32,000 bases of DNA from Candidatus Saccharimonadota bacterium (GCA_016700375.1 CP065016.1:1020001-1052000); one strand, 5' to 3'. Positions 14,786-21,098 are shown, counted from the first letter of the stretch. Notes: generated from the letters alone by a model not told the origin. Translations and numbers: made by a program.

Positions 14786-14816
14786 TTAACAGGGGTGGTA
14801 TTTCGATTTTCTATTA

Positions 14817-14960
14817 GTGCGGGTGAGGGGACTCTACCAGCGTTCCACAGGCTCGAAACTTCTTCTTTGAAAACAAGTTTTCAAGAGAAGATTTCCTTGC
14901 AAACTGCCACCGGCAGTTTTCACCCTGGCCTTTTTTGGCAGGAATTAGAGCCCTACCAGA
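14817..14960 (-). ncRNA. Structured repeat module, copy C, ending in a tRNA-Gly 3'-half look-alike
   Basis: The minus strand reads TCTGGTAGGGCTC..AAGGCCAGGG | TGAAAACTGCCGGTGGCAGTTTGCAAGG..long hairpin..GTTTCGAGCCTGTGGAACGCTGG | TAGAGTCCCCTCACCCGCAC. The last 20 nt differ at one position from the T-loop-to-acceptor end of tRNA-Gly (TAGAGTCCCCTGACCCGCAC). Confidence 0.55.
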
Positions 14961-15146
14961 CCAAAAGAAAAACCCCAGACAAGCTGAGGCATTTCTTTTG
15001 GTGCAAGACCACTCAAAAGTTGTACACCATAACGACATAGACTACTACACTTTATTGAGGTCAGAAGTGCAACGCTGGAGGGATATACTGGCTGTCCCGT
15101 ATACCAACTATAAGAATATGTTAGTTCCTCACTAGACTTACACGCC

Positions 15147-16610
15147 CTAGACTAGAGCCGTGTTAATAGTTTGGATAATACCCTCCACCTCCTGCTTTGA
15201 AGATGCCTTAATCGTACCGTCTTCATTAAAGAGGCCTACCTTGGGAGTTTTATCTTTTGGCTTATCTCGTATGTCGTCTGTTGTCCATTTTTGAATAAGG
15301 TCAGTGCCATATACAGCCGTAGCCATCTGGTAGTCCGCTACGCTGTCATTATCGTAAATAGCAGATGGTTTAATACCTAGTGCAGTCGCCAGTTTTAGCC
15401 AATTAAGTATACTGCCCGCACCATCAGCACCGTGTCCGCATATTTCAAAGTTCGCCCTTATATGTTCACTGAGAATATACTCACGTAAAATATTTGCGTC
15501 GTCTAAACCTTCAACCATTAAAACTCTATCAGCAAAAACAATCTCTCTCGAAATAATGTCTAGGTTATGCTGTCGCCTAGGCTGTGTAGTAAATCTTATA
15601 TCAGGGTGTTTATCTCTGGAAAGCTCGTACACTTCGGCTTGCTCGCCATCGCTTGAGGCTATTCTAATTATCTTTGCACCTTTAGGTATAATATCCCAAC
15701 TTATCATATAAGGTGAGTGTGTAGCCATTATGACCTGAACATTTCTCGATATCTCTTTTATATACTCATAGAGCTTCTTTTGAGCTTGGGGGTGTAGGGA
15801 GGCTTCAGGTTCATCTAGGACGAGCATACTAACTTGTTGCTGAATACCGTTTATAGCACCCGCCTGACTTTCTCTGATAAGCAGCAAGTAGGCACAAATA
15901 ACCATAATGGTTTGTACGCCATCACCAACCAGTGCCATATCGATAACTTGGTTCGATTGGGTCGAGCGATAAAGGGCTTGATACTTATTGCCTCTTTGCC
16001 TCAGTAGTTCAAAACCTGTGTAATTTGGTATAAACTCTCTCACTAAATCGGTATATTTTTCAGTGAGGTTGTCGCTCTCGGAAATAACGAGTAGAGTGCT
16101 GAGAAAGTTCTGATTTGGCTTTCGTGTTTCCTCAAAGTTCTGGTTTGAACCATAGTTATTTGATACGTTTTGAGACACTTGATAAAGCTGGTTAATACGG
16201 TCAGTATCTGTGGGATTTGGATTTCCGCCAAGCATACCCATATAAACGTTTGATGCCTCAAATGCCCAGCGTCTATCAGAGGGCAAGTACATACTGATAA
16301 TATTTGGCCATTGACCCTCAGGCTCTTGAATAATGGTAGGGTTGGTTTGATTTTTTGAGTATTGAATAATACCTTTTTTATCACCCGCATCCACAATTAT
16401 CTTTGGGCTATCTGAAGTCCAGTCCTCACGGTTAACCTGATTATAATAGCCCGTACCAATAAGATTGAGTACCGATGACTTGCCTACATTATTCGAGCCT
16501 ACAATTACATTTAGACCAATTTTATCGTTATCGGGTTTTTGAAACTCGATTGTACGAGATGCCTTAAATAATCTAAAGCCCTCAATAGTGAGCTTACTTA
16601 TGCTGTCCAC
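15147..16610 (-). CDS. OLD-family nuclease: ABC/AAA_15-like ATPase fused to a TOPRIM domain (487 aa, GTG start)
   Basis: Walker A GSNNVGKSS (16473-16499), Walker B LVLDEPE (15804-15824) and ATHSPYMI. TOPRIM acidic motifs VLMVEGLDD (15498-15524) and IYDNDS (15342-15359). Confidence 0.8.
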   Translation of the reverse strand: MDSISKLTIEGFRLFKASRTIEFQKPDNDKIGLNVIVGSNNVGKSSVLNLIGTGYYNQVNREDWTSDSPKIIVDAGDKKGIIQYSKNQTNPTIIQEPEGQWPNIISMYLPSDRRWAFEASNVYMGMLGGNPNPTDTDRINQLYQVSQNVSNNYGSNQNFEETRKPNQNFLSTLLVISESDNLTEKYTDLVREFIPNYTGFELLRQRGNKYQALYRSTQSNQVIDMALVGDGVQTIMVICAYLLLIRESQAGAINGIQQQVSMLVLDEPEASLHPQAQKKLYEYIKEISRNVQVIMATHSPYMISWDIIPKGAKIIRIASSDGEQAEVYELSRDKHPDIRFTTQPRRQHNLDIISREIVFADRVLMVEGLDDANILREYILSEHIRANFEICGHGADGAGSILNWLKLATALGIKPSAIYDNDSVADYQMATAVYGTDLIQKWTTDDIRDKPKDKTPKVGLFNEDGTIKASSKQEVEGIIQTINTALV

Positions 16611-16786
16611 GTCTACATTATAGTCCCCCTACCTATCAAAAAGTGTATTTTAGTCAGTCCGTAAACGCACTACCTACCTAAAATGTTCCGACGACTAAAA
16701 ATCCTATGTTTTGGAAATCGCCCAACAATAAAATATAGTTAACAGGGGTGAAATATTGTTGGGAATAAAGATAGTAAAATGAGTGT

Positions 16787-20837: not shown

Positions 20838-20984
20838 TGGTAAGGGGACTCTACCTACCTTCGGCAGGCTCGGAACTTCACGGCGTCAAGCATAGCTTGA
20901 CCCGGAAGATTCCCTTGCAAAGCACCACTGGTGCTTCTCAGCCTGGCCTCTACTCGGCCAGGCGTTAGAATCTCTCACGCCAGA
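20838..20984 (-). ncRNA. Structured repeat module, copy D, between the tRNA-Gly terminator and the helicase promoter region
   Basis: The minus strand reads TCTGGCGTGAGAGATTCTAACGCC..GAGGCCAGGC | TGAGAAGCACCAGTGGTGCTTTGCAAGGGAATCTTCCGGGTCAAGCTATGCTTGACGCCGTGAAGTTCCGAGCCTGCCGAAGGTAGG | TAGAGTCCCCTTACCA. It is near-collinear with copy A and shows compensatory stem changes. Confidence 0.55.
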
Positions 20985-20988
20985 CCAT

Positions 20989-21020
20989 ATAAAAAGCCTC
21001 ACTTTCGTGAGACTCTTTAC
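20989..21020 (-). terminator. Hairpin terminator directly after tRNA-Gly
   Basis: AAAGAGTCTCAC-GAAA-GTGAGGCTTTTT on the minus strand, starting 2 nt after the CCA. Confidence 0.7.
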
Positions 21021-21021
21021 A

Positions 21022-21098
21022 TGGTGCGGGTCAGGGGACTCTAACCCCTGGCCTCGTCCTTGGCAAGGACGCGCTCTAAACAACTGAGCTAGACCCGC
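21022..21098 (-). tRNA. tRNA-Gly (GCC)
   Basis: The reverse complement folds as GCGGGTC-TA-GCTC-AGTTGTTTA-GAGC-G-CGTCC-TTGCCAA-GGACG-AGGCC-AGGGG-TTAGAGT-CCCCT-GACCCGC-A-CCA. Confidence 0.93.

Follow-up and report, generated by a model that had tools for sequence, protein, structure and literature searches.

A tRNA-Gly(GCC) gene with an encoded CCA end lies intact on the minus strand (21022-21098; found by ARAGORN, 67.5 bits with the Rfam tRNA model) of the Candidatus Saccharimonadota bacterium DNA considered here, a window of 32,000 nucleotides (GCA_016700375.1, CP065016.1:1020001-1052000). Along this strand the gene is followed by a hairpin with a T-run (about 20984-21025), a partial copy of the tRNA gene called D, genes for a helicase (1290 aa) and an OLD-type nuclease (487 aa), and a second partial copy called C. 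Copy D (20948-20838) runs from GGCCAGG to TAGAGTCCCCTTACCA and copy C (14930-14817) from GGCCAGG to TAGAGTCCCCTCACCCGCAC. The window has two matches to the composite pattern GGCCAGG-N80-110-TAGAGTCCCCT and 100 shuffles have none, and TAGAGTCCCCT alone occurs three times (in tRNA-Gly, D and C) against 0.29 expected; copy C agrees with the last 20 nucleotides of tRNA-Gly at 19 positions (95%, repeat family D6). The DNA between the copies has a GC content of 0.38-0.45, compared with 0.49-0.55 in the flanks (0.41-0.47 and about 0.505 in a further comparison), and the larger open reading frames (ORFs) across 9.2-22.8 kb, searched with Pfam and PADLOC, include no integrase domain between D and C. 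A first-pass annotation of the sequence had remarked on tRNA-Gly-adjacent, diverged repeats around AT-rich, integrase-free DNA, and this observation is confirmed: the copies exist, they are 64% identical and the GC profile is not flat. Its interpretation as the scar of an inserted island is only partly supported. Low GC does characterize 14.8-21.1 kb as proposed; its limits do not lie there, since the tract spans about 10.2-21.0 kb, the full interval from tRNA-Phe to tRNA-Gly.

Copies D and C are not a pair, because the module that interrupts both of them is also found at 8959-9045 and 9115-9202 on the plus strand and at about 13590-13679 and 21168-21254 on the minus strand. This module of ~88 nt forms three hairpins and is present in seven copies in the window, D and C among them. 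Its core, of fixed length (28 nt, TGARR-N4-YCRGTGR-N7-CAAGG), has six matches in the window, with 0 expected. The R1 covariance model gives 89.4 bits for module A (8959-9045, plus strand; match 8954-9052), 98.7 for B (9115-9202, plus; 9110-9209), 94.7 for C (14922-14837, minus; 14829-14927), 92.2 for D (20940-20854, minus; 20846-20945), 92.9 for F (21254-21168, minus; 21161-21259) and 39.1 for E (minus; 13590-13684). Window copies are mutually 53-65% identical and only B and D reach 85%; these two form an 84% inverted repeat (I2) across 11.6 kb. Each window copy is closer to modules in other contigs than to its siblings in the window; module C, for one, is 85% identical to a module in another contig.

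Beyond the window, collections were scanned with a stricter form of the core, which was recovered in at least 120 metagenome contigs, nearly all of them with a perfect six-pair hairpin of differing sequence followed by the remaining module. The statistics given here (132 instances, 86 short forms, 83 aligned modules) come from the matches listed in that scan. Short forms are 85-90 nt long in 84 of 86 instances, and a long form also exists, as in unit E described below. The alignment of 83 modules yields three hairpins, with compensatory double changes at 27 of 34 pairs, 95.9% paired cells as opposed to 73.3% in shuffles, and a covariation score of 0.593 as opposed to 0.18 for shuffles and 0.04-0.11 for slid partners. 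The nucleotides UGA, C-GUG and GCAAGG are unpaired and invariant. In hairpin 3, G-U dominates two pairs (in 75 and 38 of the 83 sequences), which identifies the folding strand as the tRNA-sense strand. The predicted fold is strongly supported by these covariation data. Moreover, all of the old and diverged copies keep it, which points to selection on each copy rather than to decaying attachment (att) scars or a recent burst of transposition, and argues for modules that are individually kept as a folded single strand of tRNA-sense polarity.

Known RNA families do not account for the module. At gathering scores, Rfam 15 recognizes four tRNAs and no module in the window, and scans of the module regions at E-values up to 10 return chance-level matches only. 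Judged by eye against consensus sequences, the hammerhead, twister, pistol, hatchet and HDV ribozymes, RNase P, tmRNA, SRP RNA and riboswitches do not appear to fit it either. A phage or plasmid origin was likewise rejected: the phage and plasmid collections contain no module match, and the seven core matches in viral contigs consist of six without the hairpin and one with the hairpin and no other part of the module. Full-text literature searches turned up no account of either the module or pseudo-tRNA units for bacteria of the Candidate Phyla Radiation (CPR). One of 10 module-bearing metagenome loci that were looked up has the taxon name Ca. Saccharibacteria, and the genome loci closest to the window belong to metagenome-assembled genomes of Ca. 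Saccharimonadales. The family is widespread in Saccharibacteria and, apparently, undescribed.

In the window, partial 3′ ends of tRNA-Gly are repeated across the region in units D, C and E, as the annotation had noted for D and C. Unit D (20838-21025, minus strand), delimited from sequence, R1 and pattern matches, starts with the CCA of the tRNA and its terminator hairpin (about 21025-20984), followed by X (20972-20956), in which tRNA nt 44-60 are copied in inverted orientation, then a loop, the direct copy GGCCAGGC (20948-20941), module D and TAGAGTCCCCTTACCA (20853-20838). The X hairpin has a predicted energy of -19.5 kcal/mol. In unit C (14817-15004, minus strand; sequence, inverted repeat I13 and R1), GCACCA (15004-14999) and a terminator hairpin (15002-14960; 14990-14972 in the terminator scan) precede a degenerate inverted X (about 14950-14937). 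After X, an A6 loop leads to GGCCAGGG (14930-14923), and next come module C (14922-14837) and TAGAGTCCCCTCACCCGCAC (14836-14817). The terminator-like hairpin that had been placed near 14960-14990, between the nuclease gene and copy C, is therefore real but part of unit C: preceded by GCACCA, it is a copy of the tRNA 3′ end with its terminator. Unit E (13470-13767, minus strand; repeat families D2 and D3, and R1) contains a long degenerate module. It comprises GCACCA (13767-13762), a terminator 89% identical to that of tRNA-Gly (13765-13724), X (13712-13695) and a module that extends from 13679 down to about 13590 and further, with no clear 3′ tRNA copy after it.

Upstream of tRNA-Gly, unit F (21099-21279, minus strand) is a pseudo-5′ unit. 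An exact 25-nt copy of tRNA-Gly nt 1-25 (21279-21255; repeat D9, 100%, spacing 181) is followed by module F (21254-21168) and a degenerate anticodon-arm remnant, GTTCCTTGCCAGGCCAAG, and a promoter scan places a promoter-like TTCGCA-17-TACAAT (21142-21114) just before the tRNA gene. Among loci of relatives (designated L followed by a number), unit F is present in L130 and L132 and absent from L001; the arrangement recurs in L027, L033, L050, L053 and L075, and at least seven genomes have an F-type unit with a conserved CCTTGCCAGGCCAAGG hairpin upstream of tRNA-Gly. A leader of ~150 nt (21280-21470, minus strand) lies between another, strong promoter-like sequence, TTGCAA-17-TATAAT (21468-21440), and the 5′ sequence of tRNA-Gly. 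A long hairpin (AATCACAAA..TTTGTGATT) and a run of eight T (T8) are part of this leader, which is 97% conserved in L001 (12600-12766); the leader of L130 is different and 93 nt long.

The opposite strand carries modules A and B (8954-9223, plus strand; R1, fold z-score of -5.96), upstream of a VIT1 gene. Module A stands alone and is closed by AAGAGG/CCUCUU. B is a full-length, degenerate pseudo-tRNA-Val-like element (9060-9223) that extends from GGGATTGTAGCTCAG to CCAATCCCACCA. Its T-loop contains the module, excision of which leaves a weak tRNA-Val(cac) for ARAGORN. VIT1 genes lie near modules in three other loci at variable distance and in variable orientation, for which reason a role as a 5′-untranslated-region element of VIT1 genes was rejected.

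The connection of modules with tRNA genes is general. A same-strand tRNA gene occurs within 300 nt of 85 of the 132 modules and an opposite-strand one near four, so that polarity with respect to tRNA sense is strict. The usual site is the 5′ edge of the T-loop in a tRNA-derived fragment located beside a real tRNA, for at least 14 isotypes, and two positions in the tRNA are occupied overall. On the 3′ side, the core motif starts no more than 150 nt past the tRNA 3′ end in 45 of the 132 modules (14 isotypes), and in all but five of these the distance is 67-90 nt. The order is then the tRNA, a terminator hairpin that includes CCA, an inverted copy of the tRNA's own nt ~44-60, a short loop, a direct copy of nt 44-54, the module, a direct copy of nt 55-76 and, sometimes, the same terminator again. 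The sequence after the module matches nt 56-76 of the adjacent tRNA with a median score of 19/21, and the inverted copy is specific to the adjacent tRNA (local score of 9.2 compared with 6.0 for other isotypes, p = 1.7e-14). Since specific inversion is restricted to nt 44-60 and nt 61-76 are at background (p = 0.46), one giant palindrome extending from the tRNA 3′ half across the terminator into an inverted tRNA 3′ half was discarded. On the 5′ side, in 39 cases, the distance from the module start to the start of a tRNA gene is 122-261 nt and mostly no more than 190 nt. Here the 5′ part of the tRNA is copied first, the module and a few tRNA nucleotides come next, and an inverted T-arm copy, which also provides a -35-like box, is followed by a -10-like box and the intact tRNA. 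Promoters are found before, and terminators after, many units.

Other classes of insert occupy the same T-loop site. In L117 (reverse-complement coordinates 94-720), tRNA-Leu(CAG) has one pseudo-unit upstream and two downstream, and the third of these contains an unrelated insert of ~100 nt at the T-loop site; in L132 (7500-7600), a 34-nt hairpin replaces the module. In the RAAC3_TM7 genome (L140, 6215-6342), between a TATAAT box and tRNA-Pro and close to the latter, 15 nt of the tRNA-Pro 5′ end are copied and run into a different insert of ~95 nt, which starts with TGAGA and a hairpin. A distant lineage of Saccharibacteria thus also has pseudo-5′ units, with inserts of another class. Nested copies, several classes of insert at one site and the polymorphism of unit F together indicate a dynamic system.

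Two candidate explanations of this placement were rejected. Excision of the module, tried with ARAGORN at 63 offset combinations per instance, restores a junction-spanning tRNA in only one of 86 cases, so modules are not introns of working tRNA genes. An enzyme encoded in cis was rejected on the evidence of the module neighbourhoods, stretches of ~6 kb, whose 356 ORFs fall into 285 clusters: no Pfam family occurs on more than two of 148 representatives, and the 25 Pfam families listed for the neighbours include no recombinase, transposase or reverse transcriptase.

These results bear on a reading of the module as a selfish, non-autonomous mobile insertion, intron-like or similar to MITEs (miniature transposable elements with inverted repeats). 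Such an element would target G-rich 5′ strands of hairpins before U (GGGG^UUCGA in the T-arm, GGGG^UCGCG in its own third hairpin) and survive only in dispensable tRNA duplicates; the array would be a by-product and the neighbouring cargo incidental. Modules are nested inside the third hairpin of other modules, after GGG(G), in L010, L024, L028, L054 and L118, and the same hairpin-2 subtype is found in different tRNA contexts of different genomes. The variety of isotypes, the two positions in the tRNA, the other insert classes and the presence or absence of unit F between near-identical strains are in line with this reading too. It is nonetheless rather unlikely, as modules have neither terminal inverted repeats nor target duplications, are not enriched for transposase, reverse transcriptase or recombinase genes nearby, are missing from the viral contigs and the phage and plasmid collections, and do not restore a tRNA upon excision in 85 of 86 cases. 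In addition, old copies (53-65% identity) are each still about 96% paired, unlike the outcome of a burst followed by decay.

A function for the host is somewhat better placed. The units may be non-coding RNAs in which a conserved RNA domain is carried by a tRNA-derived scaffold, in the 5′ leader or 3′ trailer of tRNA transcripts, with a role in the expression, processing or quality control of tRNA, or else in catalysis or the binding of a protein; accessory genes would merely be co-located. The strong covariation, the invariant unpaired nucleotides, the strict sense-strand polarity, the promoters and terminators around many units, the retention of the fold in all ancient diverged copies and the recurrence of the F-type unit with its CCTTGCCAGGCCAAGG hairpin in at least seven genomes are what such RNAs would lead one to expect. 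Less easily reconciled with it are the many copies per genome, nested and degenerate ones included (unit E, and L001), the presence that differs between near-identical strains, the lack of a match to known RNA families and the fact that no partner protein was identified. Taken as a complete explanation, it can be entertained, with the balance tilted against it.

The genes between the units have separate histories. The helicase cassette (16787-20718, with the ORF at 16787-20659, minus strand; Pfam and PADLOC) encodes an Upf1-like superfamily-1 helicase (AAA_11/AAA_12) of 1290 aa fused to a C-terminal MTES_1575 nuclease domain, whose best PADLOC match is the candidate system PDC-S37 (1.5e-66); the Hhe and Mokosh models also match, and GajB does not. 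More than 100 full-length homologs (68-94% identity) are distributed across Saccharibacteria. Nucleotide identity with S. aalborgensis is 86.3% and covers exactly 20718-16788, that is, the ORF and 59 nt of promoter region. In S. aalborgensis and RAAC3 (L138 and L140), the helicase adjoins genes for a large serine recombinase and an HTH_17 protein, and the RAAC3 large serine recombinase gene abuts tRNA-Pro. L138, L140 and L141 have the helicase without the OLD gene.

The OLD-family nuclease segment (15015-16713, with the ORF at 15147-16610, minus strand; Pfam AAA_15, AAA_21 and OLD-like_TOPRIM) encodes an ABC-type ATPase with a TOPRIM domain, and matches the Old, AriA and GajA models of PADLOC at 1e-22 to 1e-28. 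The contigs L132 and L134-136 have homologs (77-88% identity) on the strand of tRNA-Gly, 2.1-2.5 kb downstream of it, and lack the helicase there; L137 also has OLD without the helicase. The nucleotide homology (80.5% identity to L132, 73% to L134) includes the gene, about 70-100 nt upstream and 130 nt downstream, and ends at GCACCA. This motif follows the segment in the window, L132 and L134, and is itself followed by a terminator-like hairpin in the window and L134. In L134, an excisionase-type gene (HTH_17) comes first in the segment after the pseudo-unit, and this segment has the 8-nt repeat TGCACCAA on either side. The same contig, with its stand-alone OLD gene, has genes for T4SS_pilin, TrbL_3 and PrgI (type IV secretion or conjugation-like), Fic and PLD-like proteins at 1-2600, 5-8 kb upstream of tRNA-Gly. 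OLD is thus an old resident of the tRNA-Gly locus, to which the helicase was added by a separate acquisition; the two are probably independent single-gene units. The 'defence operon' previously seen in the two genes becomes doubtful, because they occur apart in relatives and their homology borders differ.

A second cargo segment (13768-14816, minus strand; Pfam) contains DUF6157 (14300-14701) and DUF1761 (13874-14290) genes, and is bordered by ..CCCGCAC on one side and by GCACCA with a terminator on the other. On the tRNA-Gly side of the helicase, a 100-nt stretch (20738-20837, minus strand) is conserved with L001 at 89% (blastn, L001 13101-13239 against window 20875-20738). The motif CC(G/A)CCCCTGT occurs twice in this stretch and once after unit C (14770-14816, minus strand); it may be a shared operator, a promoter element or a remnant.

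Relatives were also compared across the interval that starts at tRNA-Gly, as the annotation had proposed, and different genes are found there. In L001 and L130, which represent one lineage, 2.8 kb of small uncharacterized ORFs replace window positions 12254-20738, and the genes between tRNA-Gly and tRNA-Phe differ from those of the window. These two loci are 98.4-99.8% identical over their aligned stretches, and yet unit F occurs in only one of them, L130. For the flanking DUF4922 gene, the database contains three homologs only. A gene for a CMAS-type methyltransferase adjoins the region upstream of tRNA-Gly in L001 (11117-12535), L130 (1621-3009) and L132 (5677-7059); the window has no such gene at this place, and DUF4922 directly abuts the leader. 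The tRNA-Phe gene and its terminator are inverted in L001 (18700-18819) with respect to the window (10008-10127), and synteny stops there. Given this inversion and the inverted repeat formed by B and D, rearrangements appear to end at tRNA-linked repeats. On a larger scale, two inverted copies of an rve-type insertion sequence (IS; 4893-6282 and 26528-28826), identical over 1318 nt and 79 nt, flank a 20.2-kb segment in which the entire region between tRNA-Phe and tRNA-Gly lies. A DDE_Tnp_1 IS (ORF 27929-28741) disrupts the second copy, and L001 lacks window positions 26529-28824.

A single old island remains to be considered, in which a tyrosine integrase, later lost, would have inserted helicase and OLD together at the T-loop of tRNA-Gly and left D and C as attL/attR-type scars. 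The intact tRNA at one end, the partial copies of its 3′ part in D and C, the low GC and the different cargo of one relative lineage are all in accordance with it. Nevertheless, D and C represent different module lineages and have an identity of only 64%. The tRNA and partial-copy architecture recurs in 45 other cases, and in all but five of them the core motif follows the tRNA at just 67-90 nt, which leaves no island between tRNA and partial copy. OLD stands at the locus without the helicase in four contigs, the helicase homology to S. aalborgensis stops exactly at the ORF and 59 nt, and the replacement in L001 extends from 20738 to 12254 and not from D to C. This reading is largely refuted and must be regarded as very improbable. 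What stands of the island proposal is a low-GC, variable accessory region devoid of integrases; what falls is a single island bounded by D and C, with these copies as its two att scars. The region is a tRNA-anchored mosaic hotspot, not a cassette delimited by the two copies.

The explanation that we favour, and consider on balance probable, is that the tRNA-Gly array of pseudo-units consists of maintained structured elements that also serve as stacking points for separately arriving genes. In this scheme, tRNA-Gly(GCC) is flanked by its own degenerate partial copies, with one 5′ unit upstream and three tandem 3′ units downstream, each 3′ unit combining the tRNA 3′ end and terminator, the inverted 5′ half of the T-arm and a module at the 5′ edge of the T-loop. 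Because every unit re-creates ..CCCGCAC/CA and the terminator, the locus would offer reiterated attachment or recombination sites, and the reiterated tRNA 3′ ends could act as stacking points for accessory DNA. Recombinases acting in trans, or homologous exchange between units, may then add or swap cargo and leave the functional tRNA undamaged. Candidate trans-acting enzymes are those of the elements with a large serine recombinase and HTH_17 that hold the same helicase in relatives. OLD would have arrived early and the helicase later, with its own promoter; DUF6157/DUF1761 would represent another insertion. In favour of the scheme are the anatomy of the array, the covariation and polarity of the modules, their match to adjacent tRNAs, the separate histories of the genes, cargo junctions at repeated tRNA 3′ ends (both borders of DUF6157/DUF1761, and GCACCA after OLD) and the polymorphism of cargo and of unit F. 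The modules themselves are most likely RNA, presumably made as the leader or trailer of the tRNA transcript.

Several observations weigh against this explanation. The helicase borders, at 20718 and 16788, are not at unit ends, so that the helicase, at least, came in elsewhere than at a reiterated tRNA 3′ end, and the 3′ end of unit D is degenerate (..CCCCTTACCA). The only recombinases in the window are two IS transposases (rve/DDE, 4943-6190 and 26620-28741), which lie outside the region, and no enzyme family is enriched near the modules of 118 other loci. Evidence for compensation in the hairpin formed by the inverted copy X is weak (12 of 67 differing positions), and the comparison of the tRNA-Gly locus rests on a handful of relatives.

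As for the nature of the module, we tentatively propose, as a view that falls a little short of probable, that together with its long form and the sibling classes of insert it represents an undescribed structured RNA, specific to Saccharibacteria and housed in the T-loops of tRNA-derived scaffolds. It could be a new small ribozyme, a mobile intron-like element whose insertions follow GGGG^U hairpins, or else an RNA with a regulatory or processing role linked to tRNAs, and the units would double as a recombination scaffold for the stacking of accessory and defence genes in these very small genomes.

Saccharibacteria and other CPR bacteria have genomes of ~1 Mb with few recognizable mobile-element enzymes, and their gene content is still variable. 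If their tRNA genes are systematically flanked by pseudo-tRNA units with a conserved folded module, a widespread RNA or single-stranded-DNA structure is absent from Rfam 15, and the module family offers more than 80 diverse sequences with strong covariation. Under the same condition, the units may account for the gain of accessory and defence genes beside single-copy essential tRNAs without an adjacent integrase. A consequence for annotation is that, in this clade, a partial tRNA copy beside a tRNA gene should not be counted as an island border, and that helicase and OLD should not be called a two-gene defence system here.

Several known systems resemble parts of this locus. Gabija and related OLD-nuclease systems also place an OLD-family ATPase-TOPRIM nuclease next to a superfamily-1 helicase. 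Here, the helicase is Upf1-like with an MTES_1575 nuclease and PDC-S37 as its best match, where a UvrD-like GajB would be expected; it has no GajB match, and the pair of GajA with a UvrD-like GajB that is conserved in Gabija has no counterpart kept in relatives. tRNA introns, namely the group I introns that bacteria have in anticodon loops and the bulge-helix-bulge introns of archaea, whose non-canonical positions include the T-loop, are comparable as structured inserts at a defined position. They differ in that removal of the module leaves a recognizable tRNA in one of 86 cases, host fragments are partial or degenerate, and an intact tRNA lies alongside; with 88 nt, the module is also far below the size of group I introns.

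Repetitive extragenic palindromes and bacterial interspersed mosaic elements (REP/BIME), as well as palindromes derived from IS200/IS605, share with the module a small size, an intergenic and non-coding character, multiple copies, folding of one strand and possible nesting. Unlike such elements and MITEs, the module has ancient, individually constrained copies at a specific location in the tRNA T-arm, and neither terminal inverted repeats nor target-site duplications are seen in the aligned termini and flanks; the window copies are 53-85% identical, not near-identical. No Y1/RAYT transposase gene was seen near modules, and the one Y1_Tnp gene of RAAC3 is unrelated by position. Integron attC arrays likewise alternate short cassettes with structured repeats of ~60-140 nt, conserve a fold of one strand rather than a sequence and have no recombinase beside most cassettes. 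The module is distinguished from them by three hairpins with invariant junction nucleotides, by its attachment to tRNA fragments and by mostly cassette-free units; the window contains no intI or other integrase gene, and the module consensus lacks the GTTRRRY/RYYYAAC cores of attC.

The closest parallel is with tRNA-anchored genomic islands, for which integrase sublocation classes exist. As in these islands, an intact tRNA at one end is accompanied by serial partial 3′ copies, a direct repeat of the tRNA 3′ segment lies at the other border (tRNA-Gly and C), and low-GC, variable cargo with defence-type genes includes many segments without integrases; atypical composition coincides with presence/absence polymorphism in L001 and L130. 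For reiterated partial tRNA 3′ ends, the island and tycheposon arrays of Prochlorococcus provide a comparison (bioRxiv 10.1101/2020.12.28.424599). Unlike in the islands, the larger ORFs of 9.2-22.8 kb include no integrase, and no cognate integrase was found here; helicase and OLD occur apart and do not form one inherited or mobile unit, a conserved, covarying 88-nt module splits each partial copy at the T-loop, an inverted T-arm copy comes before each of these copies, and most units elsewhere have no cargo between the tRNA and its partial copy. The structured-repeat basis of the locus appears to be undescribed, and the tRNA-anchored accessory hotspot as such is of a known kind.

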